Shown piece by piece: positions 4,681 to 35,719 of a DNA stretch of 64,000 nt. The notes beneath the pieces were generated by a model. That model was given only the letters and a program-made list of their open reading frames with translations. It was not told the origin of the DNA and did not search any database. The translations under genes and the position numbers were made by a program. The stretch's first letter is position 1; each line of letters starts with the position of its first letter. The DNA is from a virus. Taxonomy: Duplodnaviria > Heunggongvirae > Uroviricota > Caudoviricetes. The stretch spans positions 47,463 through 111,462 of IMG/VR virus record IMGVR_UViG_3300020109_000007; one strand, given 5' to 3'.

Positions 4681-4933
4681 TCGTGATCCAATCCTTTAGC
4701 TCGGATGCAGAACAAGAACCAATTTTACGAGAAACCTCCTCTGTACCCTTTAATAACACAAAACTGGGAATAGAGCGAATTCCATATTCGGCCCTTAATT
4801 GAGGGTTATCATCAATATTAACTTCTGATAGCACTACCTCGTCCTGCAGCTCTTCTACCACTTGGATAACAGTAGGAGCCATCGCCTTGCACGGACCGCA
4901 CCAATCTGCATAAAATTTAAGTAATGTTAACAA
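4661..4933 (-). CDS. Thioredoxin
   Basis: 90 aa with the canonical WCGPCK active site and a thioredoxin-fold C-terminus (IRSIPSFVLLK). Confidence 0.85.
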   Translation of the reverse strand: MLTLLKFYADWCGPCKAMAPTVIQVVEELQDEVVLSEVNIDDNPQLRAEYGIRSIPSFVLLKGTEEVSRKIGSCSASELKDWITNESGNL

Positions 4934-5862
4934 TCTATTCTCCTTACTACTCGCGGAATAATCTCGCCAGATCGAATGACTTCAACATTGCAGCCGATCT
5001 CTAGACCTAATTCGCGAATATAGCCTATATTGTGCAGAGTCGCCCTCTGCACTTGAGCATCACCGATCATTACAGGTTCTAGAATCGCTACCGGGGCCAC
5101 CACTCCAGAACGTCCCACCTGCCATTGAACAGCATTGAGAGTAGTAATTACACCCTGCTGCACCTCTTTAAGCGCGTAAGCGCCTCGGGGGTGCTTGTCG
5201 GTGAAGCCTAGCTTATTAAAATCGTAAGTGCTATTTACACGAAATACGCGTCCATCGTGAGGGAACTGCTCCCACTCACCAGCCGTGATAACGTTAAATC
5301 CGTCCTCTACCAACCAATTCATTGAGTCAGTATAAGAGGCGAAAATACAATTGTCACTCTGTACACCGTATGCTACAAAAGTAAGCTTACGACTAGCAAA
5401 TTCATCCAGATTTTTAAGTCCAAGAGCACCAGCTGCGTAGTTTCTAGAGTTAGGTATTGACTTCTCAGCGACTACCTCCCCAGTAACTTGCATAACGTCT
5501 CCGCCATAACAGTTAGGAGGAGCAATCAAACGCATCTTGTCAGTAATATCTAGCCCAGCTTTACCGTCACCGCGCGTAAGCGCGAGAACCAGGTTTCCAT
5601 CTACATAGAGTAGTGATACTGCTGCACCATCTAATTTAGGCGTCTCGATAACCTCACCTGGAAGTTCGATTTGCTTTCCACCAACAAAACACTTTTGCAA
5701 AGAGTACATTCTATGAGCGTGAGGAATTGCTCGACTCAAGTCTACAGGAGCCCCAAGCTGCTCAAACCCATGTAGCTCTGCCAGACGATCAAACTCGGTA
5801 TCACTGATAACAGGCTCGCCAGCATAATACTTAGCAGCTGCGTACTCTAGGAAAGCTTTCAC
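4927..5862 (-). CDS. NAD-dependent DNA ligase, N-terminal fragment (adenylation + OB domains)
   Basis: KxDG adenylation motif KLDGAAVSL. The OB-domain pattern AVQWQVGRSGVVAPVAILEPV...RATLHN ends just before the position of the Zn finger in LigA. Confidence 0.8.
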   Translation of the reverse strand: MKAFLEYAAAKYYAGEPVISDTEFDRLAELHGFEQLGAPVDLSRAIPHAHRMYSLQKCFVGGKQIELPGEVIETPKLDGAAVSLLYVDGNLVLALTRGDGKAGLDITDKMRLIAPPNCYGGDVMQVTGEVVAEKSIPNSRNYAAGALGLKNLDEFASRKLTFVAYGVQSDNCIFASYTDSMNWLVEDGFNVITAGEWEQFPHDGRVFRVNSTYDFNKLGFTDKHPRGAYALKEVQQGVITTLNAVQWQVGRSGVVAPVAILEPVMIGDAQVQRATLHNIGYIRELGLEIGCNVEVIRSGEIIPRVVRRIDC

Positions 5863-12199: not shown

Positions 12200-12215
12200 G
12201 TAAGCTCCTATAAAG

Positions 12216-12289
12216 TGGAGCCCCCGAAGGGAGTCGAACCCTAGCACTTAAGATTAGAAGTCTCAATGCCGAAATCCGTCGGCGGGGGC
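12216..12289 (-). tRNA. tRNA (anticodon loop CTTCTAA suggests UCU, Arg)
   Basis: Acceptor GCCCCCG/CGGGGGC plus an encoded CCA. T-arm AGGGTTCGACTCCCT. Confidence 0.6.
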
Positions 12290-12295
12290 AATAAA

Positions 12296-12742
12296 TTACT
12301 TATTCAACTCGCGCTCAATTTCAGTAAAGAAAATCATATAACGACCCATTCTCTTTACATCCTTCTCAGTAATACCCTTAAGGCGAGTAATATCACTGTT
12401 ATGCTTTAAATCGCTACGTTTTACTTTCATGGCGTCACGATTAGCTAGAACCTTTGACTTGTAAGTATTATAGCTCTCACCATTTTGTTTAGTGAGTGCC
12501 ATGATACCTTCAATGATGCGAGAGGTAGCCCCTAGTTCGATGAGGTCTTCTACAGTAGCGGAAGTATCCTCAAAGAGATCGTGCCCTACAGCTATGCATT
12601 GAACCTCCTCATCCTCTAGGCGAACTCCGTGGAGCACTTCTAGTACGTGAAGAATATAAGGTTCCCCAGCTTTATCAAACTGCCCAGCATGAGCATTAGT
12701 AGCAAATACAATAAATTTTCCTAGAAGCTCGCCTTTATTCAT
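12296..12742 (-). CDS. HD-domain (p)ppGpp hydrolase, SpoT/RelA-hydrolase-like (small alarmone hydrolase)
   Basis: NAHAGQFDKAGEPYILHVLEV followed by AVGHDLFED matches the RelA/SpoT HD hydrolase signature. Confidence 0.65.
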   Translation of the reverse strand: MNKGELLGKFIVFATNAHAGQFDKAGEPYILHVLEVLHGVRLEDEEVQCIAVGHDLFEDTSATVEDLIELGATSRIIEGIMALTKQNGESYNTYKSKVLANRDAMKVKRSDLKHNSDITRLKGITEKDVKRMGRYMIFFTEIERELNK

Positions 12743-12759
12743 TATTACTTCCTTTCTAG

Positions 12760-12800
12760 GACTAGAGTAGCAAAACTAAGATAGCGAGTCAAGAAATAAA
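12760..12800 (-). promoter_or_regulatory. sigma70-like promoter (TTGACT-N17-TACTCT) for 12296..12742
   Basis: Reverse-complement reading gives TTGACTcgctatcttagttttgcTACTCT. Confidence 0.4.
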
Positions 12801-13000
12801 TCTCAACTCGCTATCTAAACGAACGGGTCCCCGCTGCTCCCGATTACGCCGTGCTCGATGGGGTTTCACAGGGTCGACCCTGTCTCTTCTCTATACTACG
12901 GCAACGCATGTCGCTCGGGCTACACTTTAAGGTCGCATCACGCGTCCAGCAGATTGGCCGGTGAGTAGGTAGGTTACACCCGATCCCCTACTTCTTATAA

Positions 13001-13081
13001 TGGAGCCCTCGACAAGACTCGAACTTGCATGTGATCCAATTAACCTTTCAACTGGTTCGTAGCCAGAGGGTTTACGAGGGC
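13001..13081 (-). ncRNA. Non-canonical tRNA-like RNA (acceptor, T-arm and CCA; no standard D/anticodon arrangement)
   Basis: GCCCTCG...CGAGGGC-T-CCA acceptor. T-arm GCAAGTTCGAGTCTTGT. Internal hairpins CTGGCTACGAACCAG and AACC...GGTT. Confidence 0.4.
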
Positions 13082-13086
13082 AGTTA

Positions 13087-13536
13087 TTAGTGAGCAAAAG
13101 TCTTACAACGAACAGCGTGATCTGCTGCGTGAGTAGCAGCCCAGCCGTCTGGCTTAATAACAGGCTTGAAACCCATTCCAGTTACATAGCCCATAGCTTC
13201 CTTCAAAGCGATGTTAGACTTGTGCTTAGGGTCGCTGTTTAGATCGAGGTGAACTTCAAGTGGCCTATCACCGAGAACTTCTACGATCTCAGAAGCTGCG
13301 GCGAGTGCGTATCCTGCCTCATTCATGAGGCGTTCACGCAAGTTGCCGAAGTCTCGCATAGTCTGCGTATCGTAGAAGATCTTACAGCCATGACGTCCGT
13401 CCTTATGCAGGACGATTACGGTAGAGTATCGTGCATACCAGACGCCCAACTTCTTAAGGCGAATGGAGTCACAGCCGATATAGACTTTCGACTCCTTAGA
13501 AGAGTCTGCGACAGCTTGTTTTGCTTCTTCCCACAT
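13087..13536 (-). CDS. Hypothetical protein (possibly RNase H-like fold)
   Basis: 149 aa with conserved acidic and His residues (VYIGCDS..., HLDLNSD, AATHAADHAVR). No firm family assignment. Confidence 0.3.
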   Translation of the reverse strand: MWEEAKQAVADSSKESKVYIGCDSIRLKKLGVWYARYSTVIVLHKDGRHGCKIFYDTQTMRDFGNLRERLMNEAGYALAAASEIVEVLGDRPLEVHLDLNSDPKHKSNIALKEAMGYVTGMGFKPVIKPDGWAATHAADHAVRCKTFAH

Positions 13537-14108
13537 TAGACTATCCTATTATATTTCTTGATATTATCTTCTGGAGATAAATATTGTAAATTATTTTCTA
13601 CATGTAACCCACATACTTCTACACCTTGAAGTGGTATAATATGATCTACATGAAAGCCTTTTGGACAATTAGCGTATATGCGAGCAATTTCTTTCAAATT
13701 TGCCCATTTGGGTATACTACCTAACCTTGCACTTTTGTATTTAGCAGTTCTAGCTGTTTGAGTAACATAGCTTCTGCTATAGTGACAAGTCTTACAATAA
13801 GCATTGTGACCATCTGAACGGTTTTTATTTAAAGCAAAAGAAGAAATCTGTAAAGTTTCTTTACAGGAAGAACAATTTTTTAATCCTGCTAATTTTAGTA
13901 GCCAAGTTGATAACTTTTCTTTTCCTACTTTATCGGGAAAATAACTTGCTAGTATACTTAGCCGCAGTATGTCCGTACTCTTCTCTTAAATTGTAAGAAC
14001 TTTTACTCAATATATCTAGTAATCTATTGTAGGAGTAGCCCTTGTTATCTAACAAATAAGGGATTTCTCTATTATAAGATATTATAATGCTATCTAATAG
14101 ATCTTTCA
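13537..14108 (-). pseudogene. HNH homing endonuclease pseudogene (frameshifted)
   Basis: Own translation: frame A reads MKDLLDSIIISYNREIPYLLDNKGYSYNRLLDILSKSSYNLREEYGHTAAKYTSKLFSR*. A second frame continues through RLSILASYFPDKVGKEKL...NCSSCKETLQ...PKWANLKEIARIYANCPKGFHVDHIIPLQGVEVCGLHVENNLQYL. That frame has no Met, which explains its absence from the ORF track. Confidence 0.6.
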
Positions 14109-14192
14109 TAGTTGGTTGCGGGAGTAGCGCTCGAATCTACCAGATTGCCAGGATATGAGCCTGGTGACTAACCATCTTGTCCTTCCCGACAT
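14104..14192 (-). tRNA. tRNA-like / degenerate tRNA (acceptor does not close)
   Basis: CCA, a T-arm with TTCGAGC loop and a D-arm-like segment, but 5'/3' acceptor complementarity is poor. Confidence 0.3.
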
Positions 14193-14331
14193 AATGAATT
14201 ATAGAAGCCTCTTATTAGGCTGAGGTCGAACAGAAGGAGCTGTAGGAGTATTAGCTACGTCCTTTGACTTCTGAAAGAAGCGCCCAAATAGAAATGCGAA
14301 GATTGTCTTAAACATAATAATCTCCTTAAAT

Positions 14332-14406
14332 TGGCATGGGTCCAGGGACTCGAACCCTGCTCGGCGGCTTTGGAGACCGCTGCCATCCCTGATCGGCCTG
14401 ACCCAT
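14332..14406 (-). tRNA. tRNA-Trp(CCA)
   Basis: Acceptor ATGGGTC/GACCCAT, T-arm CAGGGTTCGAGTCCCTG, anticodon arm GCGGT-CTCCAAA-GCCGC. Confidence 0.7.
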
Positions 14407-14561
14407 ATGATACTAGCAACGCATGTTTGTTGCGGACTTATTCGCATTATCCAATGAAGCTAGTTTTTCTCGAATCTTGTCATGTTGTTCCTTGGTTAGT
14501 GTATCGTTCATATCTAGAACGCCCTGCAACCATAGGGCAAAACTCTTGTAAGTATCCATAA

Positions 14562-14803
14562 TTAACACTCCACCATGGGTGATCTAGAGTAGGTTGTATT
14601 GCTTTCGATATTGAAAGCACTACCTTCGTGCGCTCTTGAAAGCGGTTCTTGCTGCTCATCCGGAAAGCTAGGGTCGATCTCGTGGATAAACACCATGTTG
14701 AGGTGTCGCTTAATTAGATCAGCTTCTCGATCTCCAATATAAAGATCATCTCCTGACAACTCGAAGAAGCCTTGCAGCCAATAACAGAAATCCCTAGAAG
14801 TCA
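14562..14803 (-). CDS. Hypothetical protein (start reassigned to avoid tRNA overlap)
   Basis: Internal Met MTSRDFCYWLQGFF.... Confidence 0.3.
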
Positions 14804-14818
14804 TACTAACCTTTCTAA

Positions 14819-14895
14819 TGGTACTAGCGGTGGGACTCGAACCCACAAACGCGAACTTTTGAGGAACGCAGGTTTGCCCTTTCCGTCACGCTAGC
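14819..14895 (-). tRNA. tRNA (anticodon loop CTCAAAA; anticodon stem has two T-T mismatches)
   Basis: Acceptor GCTAGCG/CGCTAGT, T-arm GTGGGTTCGAGTCCCAC. Confidence 0.5.
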
Positions 14896-14901
14896 ATGAA
14901 T

Positions 14902-14975
14902 TGGTTGTCCTACGAAGATTCGAACTTCGATACTACGGTTATCGGCCGATTGCTCTACCATTGAGCTATAGGACA
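14902..14975 (-). tRNA. tRNA (type undetermined)
   Basis: Acceptor TGTCCTA/TAGGACA, D-arm GCTCAATGGTAGAGC, T-arm CGAAGTTCGAATCTTCG. Perfect hairpin CGATA-ACCGTAG-TATCG in the anticodon region. Confidence 0.55.
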
Positions 14976-14982
14976 GTGAAAT

Positions 14983-15060
14983 TGGTGGACTCGGTGAGAA
15001 TCGAACTCACAACACGCGCCGTGCAAAGGCGCATCGCTATCCCTTAGTACATGCGAGCCC
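14983..15060 (-). tRNA. tRNA-Ala(TGC)
   Basis: Anticodon arm GCGCC-TTTGCAC-GGCGC and a G3-U70 pair in acceptor GGGCTCG/CGAGTCC. Confidence 0.65.
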
Positions 15061-15321
15061 GTTAAGTGGTGAAGACAGAGAGGTTCCAACTCTCCTGCGC
15101 TATGCTGCCAGCATTGCCTGGACACCAAGCCCTGCCCCCATTAACTATATTTCGTAGGCACATGGCCCTTATAATTGTTGATGTAGAACTCTTGCTCTTC
15201 TTCGTGCAAACAGCTCCACACGTATTCTAGAAACTTGATCTGCTCGTCCATAAGATGGAACTTAGCAATCAGACGTGCTTTCGCCTCTTTGTAATGCACC
15301 TTAGTCTCCTCGTTGAGGAGC

Positions 15322-15981
15322 CTAATAAGGAAACTTATTTCCTTTTTTTAGGTTTTCCTCTGCTGTAAGATATTGTAAGTTAGTTTCGACATGTAGTCCA
15401 CAAACATTATCTCCTTGCAAAGGGATCACGTGATCTACGTGATAGCCTTCAGGACAGTTTAAATAAATGTCTCTAATTGCAGCCACGTCGGCCCAACTAG
15501 GACAAGCTCTAAGTTTTGCCGCTCTTCTTTTAGCGTCAATAGCTCTTTTTACCTCAGGATTATCTTTGGCCCATCGCATAGAAGCTAGACTAGACTTCTC
15601 CGCATTGGATGCGTAATAAGCTCTAGATTTATTAACTAAGCAAATTGAGCAAGAACTACTTAATTCATCAGAGTTAGATTTATCTAGCCCAAACTCTGAT
15701 CGAGGTTTTATGCAATTACATTTAGCACAATACTTATTTTCTGTGAGTCTAAGCAACTGTTGTTTAGCAGTAAGTTTTCCTAAAGCTTTTTCAGGTGTAA
15801 GCATCTTCATATATTTATAAAACGTATCTCGCTTTATAAGAAGTAGACTCATGGCTTCTAAGCTAGAATTTGAGCCTAATACTGCTAATATAAAAGACCG
15901 ATAAGTTATTGCTTTACGGTCTTTCCATTTAGGAATTAAAATAGCATCAGGTTTATCCGTTATCTGGGCTACTAAGTCCAT
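15322..15981 (-). CDS. HNH homing endonuclease
   Basis: C-terminal YHVDHVIPLQGDNVCGLHVETNLQYLTAEEN..N. Confidence 0.75.
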   Translation of the reverse strand: MDLVAQITDKPDAILIPKWKDRKAITYRSFILAVLGSNSSLEAMSLLLIKRDTFYKYMKMLTPEKALGKLTAKQQLLRLTENKYCAKCNCIKPRSEFGLDKSNSDELSSSCSICLVNKSRAYYASNAEKSSLASMRWAKDNPEVKRAIDAKRRAAKLRACPSWADVAAIRDIYLNCPEGYHVDHVIPLQGDNVCGLHVETNLQYLTAEENLKKGNKFPY

Positions 15982-16399
15982 TCTTTATATGCTCTCGTGC
16001 AACCTTTTGCATCTTTGCTGTAGTCTCAGAGTTATTCCAATATCTATTAACACCAGAAGTATGTGGAATTAATAGAACATTATCTAAAATCTCTCCAAAA
16101 GACATTTTGCGATATTTGGCCGGCATGGCCTTGATCGCCGATTTGCCTAAAACTATAAAAGGCTTAGAACCGGCCTTCGCTAGAAAGGAAGCTACTCTAG
16201 ACCGGGATTCAAGACTAGCGGAACTGGCAGAGCCCCTCTCAACCGCATTTAGTCTGGTTGTGACCGCTAAGTAATCCTCTTTATTATTAAAGTTCAGCAG
16301 CCGCATTAAACGAGCAGCTGCTCCAGTATCAGTATGAGGGTACAGCGGTCTATCTGGATCAGTATTTGGACCTGGGCGTTCGCCCAGAATGAAGATCAT
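15953..16399 (-). CDS. Hypothetical protein, weak UDG-superfamily-like motifs
   Basis: ILGERPGP...G.......G..L..LL and a late IPHTSG. Confidence 0.3.
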   Translation of the reverse strand: MIFILGERPGPNTDPDRPLYPHTDTGAAARLMRLLNFNNKEDYLAVTTRLNAVERGSASSASLESRSRVASFLAKAGSKPFIVLGKSAIKAMPAKYRKMSFGEILDNVLLIPHTSGVNRYWNNSETTAKMQKVAREHIKNGLSSPDNG

Positions 16400-16731
16400 T
16401 CTTTACTCGATTGAATCGTAATTAGCTTGGAAGGCTTAAAAGCACGCCAGGCTTGCTCTTCTAGGTCAAATACTGGAATATAGTCATTATAATGACGATC
16501 CTCAGCAGGCTTCGTAGCCGATACGTGAGGTAGATAGTCTTCCTTCAAAGTGCAAATCATGACTCGCTCAGAGCCATCGCGCTTCTCGAAGGTAATTTCG
16601 CAGATTTCGTTCTTGAGTCGATCAATCAACTGTTCGTTATTCATTCTGAAATCCTTAAATGGAGCGCCCGGAGGTATTCGAAACCTCTTTCCATGGCTTT
16701 GCAGGCCAGGCAGCAACCTATGCGCGGACAC
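16396..16731 (-). CDS. Hypothetical protein
   Basis: 111-aa ORF. Confidence 0.3.
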   Translation of the reverse strand: MSAHRLLPGLQSHGKRFRIPPGAPFKDFRMNNEQLIDRLKNEICEITFEKRDGSERVMICTLKEDYLPHVSATKPAEDRHYNDYIPVFDLEEQAWRAFKPSKLITIQSSKE

Positions 16732-16738
16732 ATTAAAC

Positions 16739-16816
16739 TGGAGCCTCCACGAGGAATCGAACCCCGACTACCGCAGTACAAAAGCGGTGTGCTAAAACCG
16801 TTATCACTATGAAGGC
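16739..16816 (-). tRNA. tRNA-Thr(TGT), provisional
   Basis: Acceptor GCCTTCA/TGGAGGC, T-arm CGGGGTTCGATTCCTCG, anticodon region ACCGC-TTTTGTACT-GCGGT. Confidence 0.55.
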
Positions 16817-17077
16817 ATTAAATTGGCGAGCGCGACGGGTAACGATCCCGCTTTGTAGGATTGACAATCCTATGTGTTTACCATAATCACCACGCGCCCA
16901 TTAAATCTTAAATGCGGGGAAAATCTCATTGTGACCGAGAGCCTTTCGGGCTTCATCATAAATCTGACGCAGCTCATTCTCAAAGCGCTTCGTAACGGCG
17001 GCCTTCTGAGCCTCTTCCTCACGAGCCTTGGCAAGATCGGCTACAATCTGTTCAACGGTTCGCATTTGCTTCCTTTC

Positions 17078-17125
17078 GTCTTGATGCGATCATTATATTC
17101 AAAACTAGGACCAAAGTCAAGAACT
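17078..17125 (-). promoter_or_regulatory. Conserved sigma70-type promoter (TTGACT-N17-TATAAT ... ATCAAGAC)
   Basis: Reverse-complement reading gives agTTGACTttggtcctagttttgaaTATAATgatcgcATCAAGACG. Confidence 0.5.
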
Positions 17126-17752
17126 AAATTAAGAGTGGCTTTTCGAAAAGCTCTGTATTACCTCCTGACTTAAGATAATCTTTGACAGTTACTCTCTTTA
17201 CAGAGGCTAGTAACTTCTGCTCCAAAGTTAGGGCCTCTGCTCCCGTAGCAAAACTCCAAATCTTAAGTATCTCTAATAATTTATCAGAATCTTTAGCGAA
17301 GCGTTCTTTCACGGTTCTATTAGTAACCCCCACTTTATAATAGTTACCTATTTTACGTAATAGGTTAGAGCTGGTTTATCTAATTTAAACCTTGAAGTAT
17401 TACAAATGGGACAACCGTTTCCATGTAAAATAGAGTCAGGAGAAACTAGATATTTATGGTCACAATTTAAATTATGATGCAAAATCTTAGTAGTCGTATT
17501 AACGTACTTTTCTAATACGTTAAACCTGTCTTTAACTTGCTCAACGTACAAGTCGTGGGATTTAAAATTACCGGCACATAAAGGACACCCACTTCCATTT
17601 AGAAGATGAGCAGGCCTGACTCTCCATTTAAAACCACACTTATGTCTATGTAAAACAGGAGTTTTATTTGTCTGATAATTTTCCAAACGAGTATAATCGC
17701 TAGCTTTAGCAGCTAACTCAATATCATATTCTTCGTTTGTCTTTCTTTTCAT
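17124..17752 (-). pseudogene. Split GIY-YIG/T5orf172-like endonuclease gene (two ORFs, 17348..17752 and 17124..17333)
   Basis: The upstream ORF carries the Zn-ribbons (GFKWRVRPAHLLNGSGCPLC). The downstream ORF carries the family C-terminus (ITVKDYLKSGGNTELFE). Both parts are contiguous in intact paralogues such as 40082..40702. Confidence 0.45.
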
Positions 17753-17937
17753 ATGTCATTTAGTCTGCAAATATACTATATCCGTGTACTCTCCGAATTG
17801 TCCAGCATCCAGCCTTATCGCTAAACATGATACCCAGACCTTCCACAGCATTCGCCTCTTGAATGTTACGACGAAGTTTCTCGCCTGTAGCAGACTCAAG
17901 ATCACAGATACGATAGTACATTTATATTCCTATATTG

Positions 17938-18013
17938 TGGTGCGCCCCCAGGGAATCGAACCCTGATCCTCCGCTCTTCAGGCGGGTGCATGAACCACCA
18001 CTGCCAGAGACGC
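17938..18013 (-). tRNA. tRNA-Phe(GAA)
   Basis: T-arm CAGGGTTCGATTCCCTG and anticodon loop CTGAAGA. Confidence 0.6.
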
Positions 18014-18014
18014 A

Positions 18015-18221
18015 TTAGTTAATCTTACAAGTCCTACCTGATTGCTTATCACTAGGAATTACATACTCTATATGCCCACCGCGGCTAAGACAATTCGTCT
18101 TGTACTCGCTGTCAAGCTTACTATCATTAGAAACACAGCTAGTAATTAAGAAAATTACTACTACACCAGCCATAAGAACCATCGCCCATACTAGGCTGAA
18201 CATACGATCACTGGAGTTCAT
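18015..18221 (-). CDS. Small membrane protein
   Basis: TM segment FSLVWAMVLMAGVVVIFLI. Confidence 0.3.
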   Translation of the reverse strand: MNSSDRMFSLVWAMVLMAGVVVIFLITSCVSNDSKLDSEYKTNCLSRGGHIEYVIPSDKQSGRTCKIN

Positions 18222-18436
18222 TAACGCTGCCCCTTCACGGCCTGGTAAGATTGAGAGAGCTCAAACATAGAGCCTACGATATAATTAGACTTAGAAACTG
18301 GAATTACCGGAGGTCTAAAAGCAGGACTACCACAAGATAGACAAGTTCGGTATCCTAGTTCACGACGACGTGGATCGTAGTCGTCTCCACACTTAATACA
18401 AAAAGGCACAACATTCTCCGTCTTTGTTGTGTCCAT
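18221..18436 (-). CDS. Zn-ribbon protein
   Basis: CIKCGDDYDP...CLSCGS. Confidence 0.3.
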   Translation of the reverse strand: MDTTKTENVVPFCIKCGDDYDPRRRELGYRTCLSCGSPAFRPPVIPVSKSNYIVGSMFELSQSYQAVKGQR

Positions 18437-18479
18437 TATAGTACAATAAGCTTATAAAGTCAATAAGTATTTTAATTAA

Positions 18480-18554
18480 TGGTGCTCCTGAGAGGGATCG
18501 AACCTCTTCTGACCCCATACCAAAGGGTCGTGCTGCCATTATCACTACAGAAGC
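18480..18554 (-). tRNA. tRNA-Thr(GGT)
   Basis: Acceptor GCTTCTG/CAGGAGC, anticodon arm ACCCT-TTGGTAT-GGGGT. Confidence 0.6.
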
Positions 18555-18555
18555 A

Positions 18556-18627
18556 TGGAGCCCCTCCGTGGACTCGAACCGCGTCAGTCGGGGTAGAAAC
18601 CCAACGTCTCATCCAGTGAGGAGGGGC
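18556..18627 (-). tRNA. tRNA-Arg(TCT)
   Basis: Perfect acceptor GCCCCTC/GAGGGGC, anticodon arm TTGGG-TTTCTAC-CCCGA. Confidence 0.6.
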
Positions 18628-18795
18628 GTTTTATATAGCTGTTTTTAATATCTAAAGAAGAAAAGAATCCATTCTTTAAGCGAAGATCATTTACAGATAC
18701 TTTCCCACTTTTTAAGTCTTCCTCATCTTTAAGACGAGTTTTTTCTTTTTCTAGAGCTCTTTCTCTAGGATCATAATATTCCATGTTAAATTCCT

Positions 18796-26886: not shown

Positions 26887-27068
26887 GTGTAATCTCCGTT
26901 GTTACGGAGTTCGAAATAAAAATCTAATTCTGCTTCTACGTCGGCTAGTTCCTCATAAACTAGCTGCCAAGCTGTAGAGTCTTCGTCATACTCACGAAGT
27001 TCTTCTGTAAGTCCATGGACATGACGTTCTGCCACGTCAATGCTATACATGAGGTCATCGTAAGTCAT
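26877..27068 (-). CDS. Hypothetical acidic protein
   Basis: 63-aa ORF. Confidence 0.3.
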   Translation of the reverse strand: MTYDDLMYSIDVAERHVHGLTEELREYDEDSTAWQLVYEELADVEAELDFYFELRNNGDYTDS

Positions 27069-27080
27069 ATACTGCTCTCC

Positions 27081-27128
27081 GTCTTGATGAACTCAGTATA
27101 TAAATATTAAGCTTCAAAGTCAATATAA
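27081..27128 (-). promoter_or_regulatory. Conserved sigma70-type promoter
   Basis: Reverse-complement reading gives TTGACTttgaagcttaatatttaTATACTgagttcATCAAGACGG. Confidence 0.5.
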
Positions 27129-27313
27129 TTTTTAAATGCCACTTCAAAAGCCTCTTCAAAGCTTACTTCTTCCCAAGACATTCCCATCAAAACTTCCCAG
27201 TCTCTAGGTCCATTACGTCTAAAATGCGTCCAAGGATAGTAGTCGGTGTTCTCGATAGTCATGTAGAAACATGTTACTTCGTCTAGTTCAGTGATCTGCA
27301 TAACTATTTCCAA
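27107..27313 (-). CDS. Hypothetical protein
   Basis: 68-aa ORF. Confidence 0.3.
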   Translation of the reverse strand: MEIVMQITELDEVTCFYMTIENTDYYPWTHFRRNGPRDWEVLMGMSWEEVSFEEAFEVAFKNYIDFEA

Positions 27314-27314
27314 A

Positions 27315-27391
27315 ATGGAGGACCGCCCGGGTCTCGAACCCGGATCGCATGGATTAAGAGTCCAGCTATTAGCCTATTATTAAGAACGGTC
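27315..27391 (-). tRNA. tRNA-Lys(CTT)
   Basis: Loop CTCTTAA on a TGGA/TCCA stem, T-arm CCGGGTTCGAGACCCGG. Confidence 0.55.
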
Positions 27392-27586
27392 CAAAAGAAA
27401 AGCCACGGAAGTCCTGTGACAACCGTGGCGCATATGGTAGCAGCTATGAGTTACGATCTCATCAAAGGAGCCTTATGAGAGCCCCCTGGACACCAGTCCA
27501 GCTGCCATGCGCGCACTTCTACCCTTGTGTGGGTTCCCTTTATTCAGAAGAAGTGACGGTAAATAAAACGACATGATTTCCTTAAA

Positions 27587-27681
27587 TGGAGGAAGGCTGG
27601 CAGTGTCGATCTCCAACCGGGCTACTAACCCGATCCACCCGCTTTCAAGGCGGAGCCCGAGGCCGCTCGGGATAACCTTCC
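27587..27681 (-). tRNA. tRNA-Ser(TGA), type II
   Basis: Anticodon arm TCCGC-CTTGAAA-GCGGG, variable hairpin CGGGTTAGTAGCCCG, ATCGACA T-loop as in Ser(GGA). Confidence 0.55.
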
Positions 27682-27687
27682 ATTATA

Positions 27688-27764
27688 TGGATCCCCGCGT
27701 CAGACTCGAACTGACACACATGTGGGTCAAAGCCACACCGCCTTACCAGGTAGCGCAACGGGGA
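27688..27764 (-). tRNA. tRNA-Gln(TTG)
   Basis: Anticodon arm TGTGG-CTTTGAC-CCACA, T-arm GTCAGTTCGAGTCTGAC. Confidence 0.65.
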
Positions 27765-27769
27765 ATAAA

Positions 27770-28372
27770 TTAATATTTATTGTTTTTAGAATTATTTTCA
27801 TAAGGGGTTAAATATTGTAAATTAGTCTCTACATGAAGACCGCATACAGTATTTCCTCTTATGGGTATTATATGATCTACTTGATACCCTGGAGGACAAT
27901 CATCATATATTTCTCTAATCTTCTTCAGATTAGCATATGATGGAGTAGCTTGTTTAAGCGCTTTATCGTATTCAGCCCTATAGAGAGCATATCTGCCTTT
28001 ATTTTTAGAATAATACTTAGGCATATATTCTTTATAATATAAAGAATAGCACGACCTACAATAATCTTTAGAAAAGACTTCTAAGGGCAGAACTTGAGCA
28101 CATTTAGAGCAATACTTATGCTCAAATTTATTGAACAAATAAGTACAAAGCTTTTCATTTCCTTTATCGGGAAATAATTCCCTTGTAAATCTAAGCACTG
28201 CAGAAGCAGATGCTTCCATATCTCGGCCTAAATTGTAAGCCGGCTTAGCTAATGTAGTTTTGAGTTCTTCTAAGCTTAATTTAGAGCCTTTGCTCCTTTT
28301 AAACTTAATAATATCTGCTATATTTGGAACAGCAGATAGCAAAAATTTATCTATAGCTTCTTTTCTAGTCAT
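27770..28372 (-). CDS. HNH homing endonuclease
   Basis: YQVDHIIPIRGNTVCGLHVETNLQYLTPYEN. Confidence 0.75.
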   Translation of the reverse strand: MTRKEAIDKFLLSAVPNIADIIKFKRSKGSKLSLEELKTTLAKPAYNLGRDMEASASAVLRFTRELFPDKGNEKLCTYLFNKFEHKYCSKCAQVLPLEVFSKDYCRSCYSLYYKEYMPKYYSKNKGRYALYRAEYDKALKQATPSYANLKKIREIYDDCPPGYQVDHIIPIRGNTVCGLHVETNLQYLTPYENNSKNNKY

Positions 28373-28446
28373 TGGTACCCAGTAGCAGAATTGAACTGCT
28401 TCATTCGCTATGTAAAAGCGACAGGCTAACCATTACATCAACCGGG

Positions 28447-28495
28447 CTCTTGATGTAGTCATTATATTCAAAATGACCCTAGAAGTCAAGAACTT
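28447..28495 (-). promoter_or_regulatory. Conserved sigma70-type promoter
   Basis: ctcttgatg...cattata...agtcaagaact. Confidence 0.5.
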
Positions 28496-31316: not shown

Positions 31317-31523
31317 TTAGCCATTATACTCCCACATTCTAGCTTGACAAAAGTCTTTTAGTTCTTCTAACTTTTGCTCAAACTTTCTATTACCATTAAA
31401 CTTAATAGCTCTTAGAGCATTTAACGTAGCAATCCATTCTTCGAGCTTTTTACGTCGCTCTTTAGCCTTCTGAGTTTTCTCATAAGGAGTATCCTCATGA
31501 TCGTAATATTCACTTCCTGGCAT
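31317..31523 (-). CDS. Hypothetical protein
   Basis: 68-aa ORF. Confidence 0.3.
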   Translation of the reverse strand: MPGSEYYDHEDTPYEKTQKAKERRKKLEEWIATLNALRAIKFNGNRKFEQKLEELKDFCQARMWEYNG

Positions 31524-32149
31524 TATTCTAAGTAGCCTGTGGCTCTCCTCTCTTCTGGATTTAAGGCTGTATACCGGCGATCATACATGGCAATGTCTTC
31601 CCTCCACCAGTGAGGTTTTTCTCGATTTTTCCAACTAGCAAAAGCGGCTTTATCAAGCATATAGAATAGTCGATAATCTTCGATTACATTGCCAGTTTTA
31701 AGCTCATCTGGCATTGCCTCATAAAAAGGTGTAAAGCCTTTGTCAGACATGTGTTTAGGGTCAGGAAGCTTATTGCACTCTATACAACTTGCATGACTAT
31801 TTTTATAGCCACGAGCTAATCGTTCGGATTCTAAAGCATTTACATAGTTGTACGTCCACCAAAAATTTTCTAAAGAAGAACGAACCCATATGGCTGATCC
31901 ATGATTGTGGTGGCAGGGTAAATAGCGGGTAAAAGAACGTTCTTCAATAGAGGGTTCTTTAAGTTTAGCTTCCTTAATAACAGCCCATTCTTCTGGAGTT
32001 AGCGCCCTAGGTATAAACCCTAAGTATTTGTCTACCCAAAGTGCTGTAGAAAGTAACTGAACTGCTTCTAGCTGTATCTTGCCCACGTGCTTGTCTATAT
32101 GATATAGAGCGCATTCATCTAGATCATTAGCTAAATAGAATAGATTCAT
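31523..32149 (-). CDS. Hypothetical protein
   Basis: 208 aa. The N-terminus [16 protein letters not shown] loosely resembles DenV-type glycosylases. Not assigned. Confidence 0.3.
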
Positions 32150-32732
32150 TAAGTAACCTTTCTTCTACTTCTTCCGCCCCATAAGCAGATAAATTAGGGT
32201 AAATAGCTCTAGACATTATGTCTTCACACTCGTCTGGCATTTTATTGCTTTTGCTCAAGTTATCTGCAGCTTCTAAGTAGCATAAATTATATTCGCTATG
32301 TAAGCCACCTCTAGATAATGGGACTATATGGTCTACATGGTAGCCTTCTAAACAGTCAGCATAAATAGCAGTGACTATAGCTAAACTATCACTACTAACT
32401 TTTTGATTATTTATTCTACTTCGATACTTAGCTTTAAAAGGTTTATTATAAGCAAGCTCACATGCTCTACAAGCAAATTGAACTCCTTGAAATTTATTAG
32501 ATCTAAACACTGACACATCTAGAATTTGATTACATATATTGCACTTCTTCTGGTTACTTAGACCACAAATATAATTTATCCAAGATACTTTACTTGGTTT
32601 ATCTGGGTAGAAAGTTTGCATAAGCTTCGTTAATTTAGTTCTGGGTATTTTTAGATCTCTACTTATCGCCTCTAAAGTCTTAAGTTCTAAGACTTTAGAG
32701 GTTAGATAGTCTAAGGATAAATTGCTAGGCAT
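32127..32732 (-). CDS. HNH homing endonuclease
   Basis: [29 protein letters not shown]. Confidence 0.7.
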
Positions 32733-32743
32733 AAACTAATCTA

Positions 32744-33184
32744 TCACATTGAGTATAAATTGTCAAGATCTATTTTATCACATACTTCTCTTAGTTGCTG
32801 GACCTTTCGGTCAAGTCCTAATAGCTGAACTACGTTGTAAGGATCATTTTCACCTGTTCGCATAAGCTTTTGCAAGTGATTCACGATATGCTCCTCCCAA
32901 GCAATGTGCTCAGGCATAGCATCTACAGGATAATGGATATTGTCATGAACGGCCCAGGACCAACGCCAGCCTAGATTATCTGCTACGAAGTGATGCGTTA
33001 GCTCATGCTCTAAAGCATAAAGTTTAAAATCCTCGCCGTAGCCTTTATCCTGAGCAATTTCTCTATACTCCGGACGATCTAGCCAATGAGTGTTGAATTC
33101 ATTTATAGCCCCATCAGCAAAAGTGGCCGTGATAATCCCTCGCGAGATTACCACGGCCGCAGTTCTAAAGTTAATTGTTTGCAT
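32744..33184 (-). CDS. Hypothetical protein with HExxH motif
   Basis: YALEHELTHHF. Confidence 0.3.
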   Translation of the reverse strand: MQTINFRTAAVVISRGIITATFADGAINEFNTHWLDRPEYREIAQDKGYGEDFKLYALEHELTHHFVADNLGWRWSWAVHDNIHYPVDAMPEHIAWEEHIVNHLQKLMRTGENDPYNVVQLLGLDRKVQQLREVCDKIDLDNLYSM

Positions 33185-33578
33185 TAATTACAGAAAGGAA
33201 GCTAGGCGCTCCCTGGCCAGGCTGAATATCTACAAATCCAGGAGACTCTAGAAGTACGGACCCCTCCGGAAGACCATATTTACGAGCGTCTTCGGGTGCA
33301 TAAAGTTCTGCAGGCTCGTTATCTAGCATATTGATTCGATCTAATACTAAAGTAGCATAACCGATTATATCTACCCAATTATCTGCATAAAAGGGATCTC
33401 CATTACCCATACGAGCAATTTTATCAGTAATAACTACTAGTGCTTGCCTCATATCGAAATCCATAGTAGGCCAATTAGGCATCTTATGTAAGACTTCTTG
33501 TAGTCCTTGAGCAATACGAGCATGGTCTGCAAACTTGCCATATCTCGCTCCTCGCTCTGCTAATACTTTATTAATCAA
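33171..33578 (-). CDS. Hypothetical protein
   Basis: 135-aa ORF. Confidence 0.3.
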   Translation of the reverse strand: MINKVLAERGARYGKFADHARIAQGLQEVLHKMPNWPTMDFDMRQALVVITDKIARMGNGDPFYADNWVDIIGYATLVLDRINMLDNEPAELYAPEDARKYGLPEGSVLLESPGFVDIQPGQGAPSFLSVINANN

Positions 33579-34225
33579 AGATACTTCTCCACTAATTTGT
33601 TTGACTTTCTACAATTATCTGACTTTGTAAGATACTGCAAGTTATTTTCTACATGAAGGCCACAAACTTCTTTACCTTGTAGAGGTATAATGTGGTCAAC
33701 CTGGTAATCTTTAGGACAATTTATGTAAATTTGCCTAATCTTATCCATATCAGCCCATTTAGGAATAGCTTGCTTCTTTCTAGCACGAGTTCTCGCAGTG
33801 CTAGCTTTATGCAAATCTGGTCTGTTTGTTACATGTTGCTTTCTATTTGCATTACTGCATTCTTTACATATAGAATCCTTGCCGACTAATCCTCTAGTAG
33901 TAAGATTATAAAATGACTCTTTATTCTTAATAAGACTACACTGATTACAACTTCTATAGTTTAGCAGATCTAGAAAATAGTACTTCCAAGTTCTATAGCC
34001 TAGAAGCTTAACGTCAGGGAAGTTAATTCTCAGAATTCTATTTATAGTCTGAATAGATACACCGAAACTAGCAGCTATATTAGGTATAGTTTCAAACTCA
34101 TATACAGCTTCTAAGAATTCAGCTAAAGTAATGTTAGGTACTTTACCGTGCTTTTTCTTTACTAAATCAAACTTGCGTTTATGTAAGTAAGAGCAGACTT
34201 GCTCTACAAAAATTAACTTATCCAT
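33575..34225 (-). CDS. HNH homing endonuclease
   Basis: YQVDHIIPLQGKEVCGLHVENNLQYLTKSDN. Promoter TTGACAaactatgccaaatttatTATAAT lies immediately upstream with a very short leader. Confidence 0.75.
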   Translation of the reverse strand: MDKLIFVEQVCSYLHKRKFDLVKKKHGKVPNITLAEFLEAVYEFETIPNIAASFGVSIQTINRILRINFPDVKLLGYRTWKYYFLDLLNYRSCNQCSLIKNKESFYNLTTRGLVGKDSICKECSNANRKQHVTNRPDLHKASTARTRARKKQAIPKWADMDKIRQIYINCPKDYQVDHIIPLQGKEVCGLHVENNLQYLTKSDNCRKSNKLVEKYL

Positions 34226-34262
34226 GCCAAATTATAATAAATTTGGCATAGTTTGTCAAGGG

Positions 34263-34402
34263 TTAATTTTTGTTGGGTATCTCCTGCATTTGTCTTGGGG
34301 GTGCCATCAATTCGGCTGGTGGCACGGGATATTCTAGTCGTGGATCTGCGATGGTCGGCGCAGAGCAAGCGGCAAGAGCCGCCAAAATACTAGTTGCTAT
34401 TA
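34263..34402 (-). CDS. Putative o-spanin (outer-membrane lipoprotein), GTG start
   Basis: Own translation: VKKLIATSILAALAACSAPTIADPRLEYPVPP... with lipobox LAAC. It overlaps the 3' end of the i-spanin candidate. Confidence 0.35.
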
Positions 34403-34989: not shown

Positions 34990-35286
34990 ATCCGTAATAA
35001 GTCGTTTTTCTAGGCTTTATCTTAGAAAACATAGGTATATAGTCCCTAAGACTACAAAAGCCAGCGTAAAATAACCCCATAAAGGGCACCTTCCATATCT
35101 CATTCATAAATCCTTGCCGAGTCTTGGATGACGAGGTCACTCGGCGAACCTCGGGAAGTCAAGCCGCTTGGGCTACTTCCATGTCGTTATCGTTGACACT
35201 TACGTTTTTGATCTCTAAGCGGATCACACTATAGTCTCTTACCTAACTTTCATAACTAATCGAACCCAGTTCTACCCCTCATAGTT

Positions 35287-35325
35287 TTGGTGGAGTAGGA
35301 GGGAGTCGAACCCTCGTGTTAGCTT
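35287..35325 (-). ncRNA. tRNA 3'-half remnant (CCA, acceptor 3' strand, T-arm only)
   Basis: tgg-t-ggagtag-gaggg-agtcgaa-ccctc. No complementary 5' acceptor strand exists. It overlaps the 3' end of HNH gene 35330..35719. Confidence 0.4.
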
Positions 35326-35329
35326 ACTA

Positions 35330-35719
35330 TTATAGGTCGTCCTCAACTATTCTTAAATGAGGGTAGTGTACTTCCATATGACAATTATGACATAGTAAAT
35401 CACACTTGGCTATTTCGACCCTCAAGGACTCTCTGGACCTAGTTACACCTTGCGATATTTCAAAGTCTTTTTCTTCAGAGTTTTTATGGTGAAAAGTCAG
35501 AGCAGCTAAGTTATTTTTATATCCGCAAATTTCACACGCTAATAACCTACCAGACTCCTGCAAAATGTCTTTTATAGTACTAGTCTTAGCAGCTTTCTTT
35601 ACTGCATGGTAGCAATATCTACAATGTGCTTTATACTTTTTAGTACCTTTAGGGGTGTATCCATTGGAGTAAAACTCTTCTAACGGTCTAGGTACTTTAC
35701 AAGTCGCACATACTTTCAT
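35330..35719 (-). CDS. HNH endonuclease (zinc-binding type)
   Basis: CRYCYH...CEICGY...HHKN....CDLLCHNCH. Confidence 0.55.
   Translation of the reverse strand: MKVCATCKVPRPLEEFYSNGYTPKGTKKYKAHCRYCYHAVKKAAKTSTIKDILQESGRLLACEICGYKNNLAALTFHHKNSEEKDFEISQGVTRSRESLRVEIAKCDLLCHNCHMEVHYPHLRIVEDDL

Follow-up and report, generated by a model that had tools for sequence, protein, structure and literature searches.

Seven predicted free-standing homing-endonuclease genes in the tRNA array of a distant T5-like phage

We analysed a stretch of 64,000 nt from the genome of an uncultured virus of the Caudoviricetes (IMG/VR record IMGVR_UViG_3300020109_000007, positions 47,463 to 111,462 of that record), which is hereafter called the window and in which all the positions below are counted. 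Between positions 12200 and 27800, a part referred to as the island, 33 tRNA genes lie on the minus strand in clusters, each of which follows a copy of a sigma-70-type promoter, and seven genes of homing-nuclease type are wedged into the spacers. We considered the island to be a distant T5-like tRNA array in which these free-standing homing-endonuclease genes are gained and lost slot by slot via homing, a reading to which we assign a probability of about 0.85. The evidence that carries it is the presence or absence of each nuclease among collinear relatives and the re-use of the same slot by different nuclease families.

The tRNA gene block, its promoters and its nuclease genes

Judged from its genes, the island is the early-region tRNA block of a phage of ~111 kb that is distantly related to T5. 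The backbone genes expected of a T5-type phage were found, at distant kinship: a homologue of the A1 DNA-transfer protein (662 aa, 56987-58975), 41-43% identical to the A1 proteins of T5-like phages, and a DnaB-type helicase (607-1983) with ~30% identity to the helicases of these phages (both by tblastn), as well as an NAD-dependent ligase in two pieces as in T5 (4927-5862 and 3494-4234) and D5-like proteins. No nucleotide-level relative was found among 50,697 INPHARED phage records by megablast or blastn, the matches being only tRNA-sized, and an IMG/VR search with three island proteins as queries led for two of them to distant, non-collinear loci without tRNA arrays and for one of them to no locus. 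As for the host, the outer-membrane beta-barrel protein (OMP) gene of the island gave weak matches to genomes, and these were alphaproteobacterial (Aureimonas, Sandaracinobacter, Bartonella). Outside the island, at 35068-35380 on the minus strand, there is a permuted tmRNA gene of the two-piece type (Rfam RF04321, 90.6 bits; tag peptide VNDNDMEVAQAA), also called by ARAGORN, which is unusual for a T5-like phage. Permuted tmRNA is found mainly in alphaproteobacteria. These two observations hint at an alphaproteobacterial host.

The tRNA genes were counted with three tools. All of the 29 tRNAs that ARAGORN predicted in the window with default settings are on the minus strand; 27 of them fall within 14332-27764, the others being Val(tac) at 28373-28447 and Ser(gct) at 9784. 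The gathering score of the Rfam model RF00005 (29 bits) was reached by 19 full-length island tRNAs in a scan of the whole window and by 2 more in scans of small windows; in larger Rfam scans the speed filters drop several divergent tRNAs. We also built a covariance model, R1, from 16 Rfam-supported tRNAs of the window and ran it unfiltered over all 64 kb. Beyond its training set, R1 gave 18 full-length minus-strand matches with E < 1e-3, all within 12216-27764, and comparable matches were absent from the plus strand and from the sequence outside 9.7-28.5 kb, except for the tRNA-like part of the tmRNA. Six genes missed by ARAGORN with default settings were found by both R1 and relaxed ARAGORN, i.e. 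Lys-ctt at 27316, Thr-cgt at 19235, Ala-ggc at 15067, Arg-tct at 12217, Met/Ile2-cat at 14113 and an odd element at 13001. Ser-gga at 18796 is a relaxed ARAGORN call with only 15.8 bits in R1 (E = 0.028). Relaxed ARAGORN (ps80) gives evident false positives inside open reading frames (ORFs) and on the plus strand; its candidates were kept only if they lay in gaps and were backed either by R1 or by a conserved position.

In total, we counted 33 tRNA genes in 12200-27800 (34 with Val-tac), plus a few truncated or degenerate tRNA-like pieces, which agrees with the figure of about 30 minus-strand genes in an earlier note on this DNA, most of whose candidates were upheld by ARAGORN. Twelve of the 33 are below the Rfam curated threshold and are candidates based on ARAGORN, R1 and conserved position. 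Coverage of all 20 amino acids depends on counting Ser(gct) at 9784 or, failing that, the weak Ser candidates. The island is hence a block of at least 20 co-oriented tRNAs with sigma-70-type promoters and small ORFs, as in a T5-type region.

It could be argued that many of these genes do not yield working tRNAs but are relics or decoys, in which case the island would be less an aid to translation than a source of tRNA-like RNAs that might, for instance, counter the anticodon nucleases of the host or serve the Ro60-like protein described below. In fact, about one third of the calls are missed by the default Rfam pipeline, several tRNAs have imperfect stems, no encoded CCA or a truncated body, two further elements (U1 and U2, see below) are tRNA-like modules and not tRNAs, T5 is annotated with tRNA-like stable RNAs and a pseudo tRNA-Gln, and counter-defence roles of phage tRNAs have been discussed (PMC10644984). 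We regard this explanation as unlikely, given that at least 21 tRNAs reach the Rfam curated threshold, that the set spans all 20 amino acids and that the order of anticodons is conserved across relatives.

The promoter element, aATTTAGTTCTTGACTT-N17-TATAaTGA..ATCAAGA, is of sigma-70 type and has nine island copies on the minus strand, each heading a cluster of tRNAs and/or small ORFs, as the earlier note had proposed. These are P28491 (28461..28491), upstream of tRNA-Val; the conserved copies P27125 (27095..27125) and P26795 (26765..26795); P24696 (24666..24696), upstream of the Leu pair; P24382 (24352..24382), which now precedes a nuclease gene followed by Tyr and His; P21280 (21250..21280), upstream of the Asn pair; the conserved copies P18465 (18435..18465) and P17122 (17092..17122); and P12794 (12764..12794), which has a weaker -10 box and lies inside an inverted repeat. 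The same element also occurs outside the island, at 4292, 6935, 29663, 36737, 41336 and elsewhere, and it is therefore a general early-type phage promoter and not a tRNA-specific one. The inverted repeat (16 bp, AGATAGCGAGT...ACTCGCTATCT, 12779-12816 on the minus strand) surrounds the -35 region of P12794, upstream of an HD-domain gene, and may be an operator or an overlap of terminator and promoter.

Seven nuclease genes, all on the minus strand, were identified in the island: five HNH genes and two genes of the T5orf172 type, with one frameshifted gene in each group. Four of the HNH genes form one paralogous group, family A, with the motif CPxG(Y/F)(H/Q)VDHIxP...GLHV..NLQYL, which we assigned on the basis of PHROG endonuclease VII/HNH profiles and of the visible motif. 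They are the intact gene 27770..28372 at the island's edge (its own motif being CPxGYQVDHIIP...NLQYL; phrog_1035 and phrog_26577; phmmer paralogues), the intact genes 25344..25907 (phmmer paralogues, PHROG) and 15322..15981 (phrog_1035), and the frameshifted gene 13537..14109 (paralogy, visible motif). The fifth HNH gene, 20344..20943, is intact and of HNH_3 type (Pfam HNH_3; phrog_59); it is the counterpart of T5 hegD, to which it is 49% identical over the full length (E = 6e-64), and is 41% identical to hegC. As regards the T5orf172 type, 23780..24346 is an intact T5orf172/MUG113 gene (Pfam PF13455 and PF10544; phrog_5032), and the frameshifted gene 17124..17752 combines a treble-clef zinc finger (DUF4379) with a T5orf172-like part and is recognised by PHROG endonuclease profiles.

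This inventory corrects the earlier note, which stood up as to tRNAs, promoters, junctions and frameshifts and had placed at least 7 HNH and at least 9 GIY-YIG-type genes in the 15.6-kb island. The number of HNH genes is reached in the whole window, where family A has two further members (32127-32732 and 33575-34225; 7 HNH in all). The number of GIY-YIG genes is not: the zinc-finger/T5orf172 group has ~7 members window-wide, those outside the island being at 1980, 37973, 40082, 51773 and, weakly, at the C-terminus of 54278. Among the genes of the window none matched the canonical GIY-YIG model PF01541, the matches being to T5orf172/MUG113, so that the term "GIY-YIG-type" is acceptable only in the superfamily sense; T5orf172 and MUG113 are, we assume, placed in the Pfam GIY-YIG clan.

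The nuclease genes are not housed in introns or inteins but sit between complete genes, not inside them, and the Rfam scans gave no match to any intron family, group I introns included, whether the gathering score was applied or matches with E as high as 1 were admitted. Homing-nuclease genes are also dense across the early region as a whole, with ~14 in 64 kb (1980-5862, 31500-34300, 37900-40800, 51700-55100). Several of them adjoin fragmented replication genes such as the two-piece NAD-dependent ligase, and a 169-aa primase fragment (39158-39667) is flanked by two T5orf172-type genes.

Nuclease slots in relatives, junctions and homing

Eight metagenomic relatives (loci L064-L067, L069 and L148-L151) were obtained by a metagenome scan and by exact-protein look-ups, and all the seven island nuclease slots were compared across the relatives covering them. 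The identity of their Ro60-like protein to that of the window is 76% in L066 and in the fragments L064 and L065, 75% in L148, 71% in L067, 68% in L150, 67% in L151, 65% in L149 and 64% in L069. The shared gene order starts with ThyX, D5-like, AdoMetDC, Val(tac), Gln(ttg), Met, Lys, Pro, Gly, OMP, Leu, Tyr and His, continues with Ro60-like, Asn, Gln(ctg), Glu, Val, Glu, Thr, an ORF, Ser, Arg, Thr and another ORF, and goes on with Phe, Asp, Thr, Cys, WYL_2, an ORF, Ala, Ile, Leu(caa), Trp/Met, RNaseH-like, Arg and further genes. The comparison of gene order with related phages that the earlier note had suggested thus gave a conserved order and a nuclease content that differs among relatives: each of the seven island nucleases is absent from its own slot in most or all of the relatives covering that slot.

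Between Val and Gln(ttg), where the window has the family A gene 27770..28372, L151 has a 63%-identical copy 3 nt after Val, and the slot is nuclease-free in L066, L067, L069, L148, L149 and L150, which have a small membrane ORF and/or a tRNA-Ile instead. The slot between Met and OMP, filled by a family A gene in the window, is only a 42-nt spacer in L066 and L065, and the nuclease is absent in the other relatives. The OMP gene (24841..25326, minus strand; Pfam OMP_b-brl, with a signal peptide) is at the same place in seven relatives (L065, L066, L067, L069, L148, L150, L151), and it is thus a backbone gene and not a recent addition. Between the promoter after Leu(taa), i.e. P24382, and Tyr, the window has its intact T5orf172 gene; L067 and L069 keep the promoter at the same place, followed by only ~100-150 nt. 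A T5orf172 gene that is 45% identical to the one at 23780 lies, in L149, between the Ro60-like gene and Asn. In the slot of the hegD-type gene, between Asn and Gln(ctg), the two tRNAs are 8-15 nt apart and nuclease-free in L064, L150 and L151. The slot between Phe and Asp, with the frameshifted zinc-finger T5orf172 gene in the window, is empty in L149, L150 and L151 and contains in L066 a 140-aa ORF whose Cys/His motifs look HNH-like by eye, without a Pfam match. A gene for a protein like uracil-DNA glycosylase (UDG) and a family A gene stand between WYL_2 and the ORF at 15141 in the window; both are missing in L066, L149, L150 and L151.

The seventh slot, upstream of the RNaseH-like gene (PF04308; 13087..13536, minus strand), which is a backbone gene conserved in L066, L149 and L151, is a hot spot. 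It holds a family A gene in the window, a hegD-type gene (HNH_3/NUMOD4) in L066 and a gene of the zinc-finger T5orf172 type in L151, and it is empty in L149, where a tRNA-Met(cat) directly precedes the RNaseH-like gene. Furthermore, canonical GIY-YIG genes (PF01541) occur in L149 and L151, in slots that are empty in the window. Presence, absence and slot re-use, all read from sequence, support the pattern expected of free-standing homing endonucleases, and the turnover of homing endonucleases in a tRNA array that the earlier note had put forward is supported as well. Whether a given difference is a gain or a loss we infer, as the pattern of presence and absence alone does not tell them apart.

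Three unrelated nuclease families in one slot of three phages, with the same slot empty in a fourth, speak against a reading in which the nucleases are stable, vertically inherited and domesticated genes, used for degrading host DNA or excluding competitors, and in which the differences among relatives are ordinary losses. The same holds for the T5orf172 lineage that occupies different slots in the window and in L149, for the hegD-type gene that does so in the window and in L066, for the genes that are present in a more distant relative and missing from closer ones, and for the two frameshifted copies. This reading, which we consider very improbable, draws on the fact that the 27770 gene and its L151 counterpart are about as diverged as the backbone, that five of the seven nuclease genes are intact and that the seg and mob nucleases of T4 also act in marker exclusion (PMC2330249). 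We give equally little credit to the idea that the nucleases are "morons", brought in by illegitimate or promoter-mediated recombination at the repeated promoters and tRNAs, with their nuclease domains incidental. The repeated promoters and the T-loops of the tRNAs do supply many short homologies, and non-nuclease cargo varies too (the UDG-like gene, small membrane ORFs, tRNAs); nevertheless, the variable island genes of at least 500 nt are nearly all of homing-type nuclease families, and the same pattern has been attributed to homing in T4 and T5 (PMC2330249, PMC10644984).

As regards the tRNAs, the relatives share the order of anticodons, but the identity between tRNAs with the same anticodon is mostly just 65-75%, about that of unrelated tRNAs, with the exceptions of Gln-ttg, Lys-ctt and Thr-ggt at 82-90%. 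The content varies as well, some relatives having an extra Ile, Ser(tga) or Leu(gag/cag). The tRNA genes, too, turn over quickly. When nuclease-adjacent tRNAs were compared with the others for co-conversion, most same-anticodon tRNAs were already at this background of identity. tRNA-Gln(ctg), overlapped by the hegD-type gene, differs strongly from its nuclease-free copies, scoring 37.7 bits with R1 in the window vs 56.8 bits for the copies of L064 and L066. This difference is compatible both with a joint arrival of tRNA and nuclease and with a reshaping of the tRNA by the nuclease.

The junctions between nucleases and tRNAs are tight. tRNA-Met, whose end reads ...CCAGGAGTACCA, shares the final A of its CCA with the ATG of the HNH gene at 25907, exactly the overlap taCCATGtt that had been noticed before; the only Shine-Dalgarno sequence of this gene (25344..25907), AGGAG, lies within the acceptor stem of tRNA-Met. 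The gene 27770..28372 has its ATG directly after the CCA of tRNA-Val, with no gap, and its stop 5 nt before tRNA-Gln(ttg). The T5orf172 gene 23780..24346 has its ATG 5 nt after the -10 box of P24382, and the G of its TAG is the first base of tRNA-Tyr. The last 49 nt of the HNH_3 gene 20344..20943 overlap tRNA-Gln(ctg) (20313-20392), so that this second overlap, also pointed out earlier, is real. The gene 15322..15981 and the 3' end of the UDG-like gene have 29 nt in common, and 13537..14109 starts 3 nt after the third tRNA-Met(cat), its stop overlapping the ATG of the RNaseH-like gene.

Both frameshifted genes have a single defect each: in 13537-14109 it is a +1 T (AAG TTA TTT T CC, a T4 run near 13945), and in 17124-17752 it is a -1 A in GTAAAATAGG, an A run near 17350. 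The rest of the frame is open in both, with conserved motifs intact on either side of the defect, so that each of the two nuclease genes described earlier as decayed bears just one frameshift. In a second assembly (Logan SRR7979709, 97 kb) a stretch of 10,450 nt that takes in both sites has 100% identity to the window, and the frameshifts are thus present in two assemblies and are not assembler noise, although the Logan assembly and the JGI contig may rest on the same reads. That both nucleases are intact in the real phage and the frameshifts are artefacts of sequencing or assembly is favoured by the kind of defect, a single-base change of length in a 4-nt homopolymer (T4, A4) with undamaged frames around it; with the agreement between the SRR7979709 assembly and the contig at both sites, we consider it improbable.

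The mechanism that we propose is as follows. About 34 co-oriented tRNA genes would be transcribed from the repeated strong promoters together with small ORFs and with backbone genes (Ro60-like, OMP, WYL_2, RNaseH-like and HD), and the seven nucleases, four of one HNH family, one HNH of the T5 hegD type and two of the T5orf172 type, would occupy short spacers among them. Since each nuclease exactly fills its spacer, from the 3' end of a tRNA or the -10 box of a promoter up to the gene that follows, it would ride the tRNA transcripts. Its expression may be damped by a start site within the tRNA structure or at a tRNA-processing site, as is suggested by the junctions and by what has been proposed for SegB and the F-Tfl nucleases. 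By analogy with T4 SegB and T5 F-Tfl, the nuclease would act during co-infection on a related phage that has the nuclease-free allele, cutting it in the slot or close by, and repair from the nuclease-carrying genome would copy the nuclease gene and its flanking DNA into the cut genome. Copies would later degenerate and be lost, leaving the patchy slots seen among relatives and the two frameshifted copies seen here.

Several points weigh against this reading. The 27770 gene and the L151 nuclease are 63% identical, near the divergence of the backbone (Ro60-like protein 67%), so that vertical descent with repeated losses explains this case as well as homing does. The identity of orthologous tRNAs, mostly 65-75% and near the level between unrelated tRNAs, means that a conserved tRNA as homing target is supported only for the invariant T-loop, the element that SegB uses. 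Pfam support for the family A HNH genes is weak, as only one fragment reaches 20 bits. Tight packing with tRNAs is not specific to nucleases, several ordinary small ORFs abutting or overlapping tRNAs by 0-46 nt; the gene starts abutting tRNA ends to which the earlier note drew attention are exact as quoted, but they are not a trait peculiar to nucleases. Finally, nuclease activity, target sites and gene conversion are predictions.

The Ro60-like gene and other features of the island

The most novel thing in the interval is a Ro60-like gene with conserved RNA modules upstream. The gene, a backbone gene of the block (21430..22926, minus strand), codes for a protein of 498 aa with a helical-repeat ring and a vWA part (Pfam DUF2828 and DUF7788; phrog_850). 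An AlphaFold2 model made from 49 homologues has a pLDDT of 80.7 and a pTM of 0.71, and its only full-length Foldseek matches are Ro60 structures (E 6e-8 to 5e-6, TM 0.34-0.58). The best is phiRo60 of a Thermus phage (9KOP, E = 6e-8, TM 0.53/0.56), the others being Deinococcus Rsr (2NVO) and Xenopus Ro60 (2I91, 1YVP). The identity to the solved Ro60 proteins is only 13-17%; against the PDB, phmmer gave no match and a profile search reached only E = 1.1 to 9KOP, and Pfam assigns DUF2828 and DUF7788 instead of the TROVE family. We considered it a divergent Ro60-like protein, assigned by its predicted fold.

In the 790 nt upstream of this gene, the exact 10-mer ACAGCAAACC occurs four times, with one variant copy, and it occurs nowhere else in the 64 kb. 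A helix starts 9 nt before each copy, with its partner strand 40-100 nt downstream, and this defines five units on the minus strand within 22902..23693: U0 (23633-23693), U1 (23292-23385), U2 (23040-23148), U3 (22973-23030) and U4 (22902-22967). Their layout is tttAGGNNNNnn-ACAGCAAACC-a, a variable and often tRNA-like top, and NNNNCCTGtt. The top of U1 is a tRNA-like body without acceptor stem (partial Rfam match at 23304-23360), that of U2 is a permuted tRNA-like body (23038-23093), and those of the other modules are small hairpins. As U1 and U2 hold truncated "tRNAs", they explain the tRNAs near 23000-23400 among the several that the earlier note had left unassigned: those are Y-RNA-like modules with tRNA-like bodies, and not tRNAs. 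U4 encloses the ATG of the Ro60-like gene, and the protein may thus act as a repressor of its own translation via the RNA element that it would also bind in trans.

Many unrelated phage contigs have 2-5 such modules in tandem upstream of a DUF2828 gene. Among 74 loci of the Ro60-like family, many of them only ~50% identical, 30 have the motif, with at most 1 mismatch, on the same strand and no more than 700 nt upstream, at a density of 0.72 copies per locus vs 0.03 expected. In the fixed register, 51 of the 91 distinct copies of the motif come with a perfect helix of 7 bp or more, vs 2% of random positions. The helix positions show up to four pair types; pairing was a criterion of selection, and hence only this variety is informative. 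The motif is absent next to the DUF2828 genes of Aeromonas phage Aeh1 and Ochrobactrum phage OC, where there is no non-coding space upstream, and the YrlA model RF02553 has no match in 22900-23720 even at E up to 10. We consider the Ro60-like protein and the modules, from the sequences and the structural model, as a candidate RNA-protein pair and a lead. For the joint proposal, that the unassigned "tRNAs" upstream of 22926 are an undescribed Y-RNA-like family serving a DUF2828-type Ro60, with self-repression, and are not decayed tRNAs, we see about even chances.

For comparison we used the Ro60/Y RNA systems with YrlA (PMC4201824) and with phiRo60 and the RNAs Yrl1 and Yrl2 of the Thermus phage phiLo (PMC12135203). 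As in these systems, a ring-plus-vWA protein has tandem RNAs immediately upstream on the same strand, and the RNAs share with Y RNAs a helix closing both ends, a conserved motif beside the helix and, often, a tRNA-like module. Unlike in the known systems, the protein is of the DUF2828/DUF7788 type, the modules carry ACAGCAAACC and not GNCGAAN(0-1)G, and one of them encloses the start codon of the gene. Through the fold, the finding connects DUF2828, a large and uncharacterised family, with Ro60, and it provides this family with a candidate RNA partner that has a simple, searchable signature; it could matter more than the nuclease finding.

The individual tRNA genes, all on the minus strand, are given here with their support. 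Both ARAGORN and Rfam call Lys(ttt) at 26810..26886, Pro(tgg) at 26220..26296, Gly(gcc) at 26139..26212, Gly(tcc) at 26048..26131 (84 nt; 33.3 bits in Rfam), the first Met(cat), a, at 25907..25982, Leu(tag) at 24533..24617, Leu(taa) at 24397..24490, His(gtg) at 23397..23472, Asn(gtt) I at 21075..21148 (40.8 bits), Asn(gtt) II at 20964..21048 (85 nt with a long variable arm; 45.5 bits), Glu(ttc) at 19814..19890, Val(gac) at 19575..19649, Glu(ctc) at 19317..19394, Thr(ggt) at 18480..18554, Phe(gaa) at 17938..18013, Asp(gtc) at 16824..16899, Thr(tgt) at 16739..16816, Ile(gat) at 14902..14975, Leu(caa) at 14819..14895 (77 nt) and Trp(cca) at 14332..14406. Val(tac) at 28373..28447, the first tRNA after P28491, is called by R1 in addition to these two.

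Supported by ARAGORN and R1 are Gln(ttg) at 27688..27764 (55.9 bits; 82-90% identical to the copies of relatives), Met(cat) b at 27435..27506 (27.8 bits), Tyr(gta) at 23698..23780 (37.6 bits), Gln(ctg) at 20313..20392 (80 nt, its 5' part overlapped by the hegD-like ORF; 37.7 bits), Arg(tct) a at 18556..18629 (32.5 bits), Cys(gca) at 16660..16731 (38.6 bits) and Ala(tgc) at 14983..15060 (46.3 bits). ARAGORN at ps90 adds Lys(ctt) at 27316..27392 (R1 44.8 bits; 84-90% identical to L066 and L069), Thr(cgt) at 19235..19311 (R1 35.5 bits; same position in L066 and L148), the class II Ser(gga) at 18796..18887 (same position in L066, L148, L150 and L151) and a weak call, Ala(ggc), at 15067..15139 (R1 22 bits; same position in L066 and L150). 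At ps80, finally, it calls Met/Ile2(cat) c at 14113..14191, with an imperfect acceptor stem (R1 31.1 bits; L149 and L151 have a tRNA-Met(cat) there), and Arg(tct) b at 12217..12290 (R1 35.6 bits; same position in L066 and L149).

Two degenerate elements accompany these genes. At 27587..27681 (minus strand) there is a class II tRNA-like element with the loop CTTGAAA, Ser(tga)-like and with a poor T arm, recognised by reading the sequence and by ARAGORN only at ps80, and relatives carry a tRNA-Ser(tga) at its place. The element at 13001..13081 (minus strand) has an 8-nt anticodon loop, a good acceptor stem and a good T arm (R1 31.1 bits; ARAGORN at ps80 with a 4-base anticodon); relatives have tRNA-Arg(acg) at its position, and part of it is 88-97% identical to unannotated stretches in Streptomyces and Microbacterium phages.

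The two tRNA-Asn genes are also peculiar. tRNA-Asn I has no encoded CCA, and its acceptor stem extends to a perfect duplex of ~21-23 bp (21060-21170; fold z-score -7.3), kept in L065 through three compensatory changes and absent in L064 and L066; the extended stem may be a processing signal. We rejected it as a Y RNA, as it is without the conserved motif and the extension is absent in L064 and L066. In tRNA-Asn II the anticodon is that of Asn (GTT), while the variable arm is long, the D arm is Leu/Ser-like and position 73 is a G. The possibility of a mis-decoding tRNA was set aside because similar tRNA-Asn genes are annotated in other phages (matches of ~80 nt in Brevundimonas and Acinetobacter phages and of 72 nt in Pseudomonas phages). 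Lastly, 26300-26750 (minus strand) is a stretch of 450 nt without a convincing ORF or any Rfam match, directly after the strong promoter P26795 and before tRNA-Pro, and it may be a stable RNA like RNAX of T5.

Comparison with T5, T4 and the seg/mob nucleases

Homing-nuclease genes are reported to be the main differences among T5-like genomes (PMC10644984), the F-Tfl nucleases of T5 lie in its tRNA cluster, and SegB, in the tRNA cluster of T4, recognises a T-psi-C motif and drives the inheritance of that region (PMC2330249). With our analysis, the view that tRNA arrays are a haven of homing endonucleases is extended to an uncultured and distant T5-like lineage, with modest value in itself. It also offers a natural experiment, as eight collinear relatives differ in their nucleases and one spacer has been invaded by three families, and the empty and filled alleles are ready-made substrates for the mapping of cleavage sites. 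The overlapped tRNA-Gln(CUG), which scores far below its nuclease-free copies, suggests that the insertion of a nuclease can rewrite a neighbouring tRNA.

In T4, SegB is likewise a free-standing nuclease between tRNA genes, and close relatives lack it although their tRNA regions are otherwise homologous; SegB takes the adjacent tRNA genes along with it, and its expression is thought to be limited by the processing of the tRNA transcript (PMC2330249). SegB belongs, however, to the canonical GIY-YIG enzymes, its 27-bp site has been mapped to the T-psi-C region and its homing has been demonstrated, whereas the nucleases of the window are predicted HNH or T5orf172-type proteins. With the "intronless homing" of the T-even seg and mob genes the island shares intergenic insertion that spares the neighbours, a patchy distribution and degenerate copies; it is unlike them in that the nucleases are concentrated in one array of RNA genes and that the same slot is re-used by different families.

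The closest known arrangement is that of T5 (NC_005859, ~28.0-40.8 kb), in which 25 minus-strand tRNAs are spread over 12.8 kb with the promoters P11 to P15 between clusters, together with small ORFs, the HNH genes hegA, hegC, hegD and hegE and tRNA-like stable RNAs. As in T5, the window has a co-oriented early-region array of ~25-34 tRNAs that is split by repeated strong promoters and holds small ORFs, HNH genes and tRNA-like RNAs. In T5, hegD and hegC overlap the downstream tRNA by 23 and 14 nt, respectively, and in both phages a hegD-type gene runs into tRNA-Gln(CUG), which in T5 is flagged as a pseudogene. Unlike T5, the window phage has a very distant backbone (A1 41-43%, DnaB ~30%) and is known from metagenomes only. 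Its nuclease load is higher, with seven in ~16 kb, as the array has genes of a separate HNH family (CPxGxHVDH) and of the T5orf172 type among them; the array also contains the Ro60-like gene with its Y-RNA-like modules and the OMP gene, and there is a permuted tmRNA 7 kb away. The arrangement is nonetheless a pattern already known from T5 and T4, found here in a distant and uncultured lineage.

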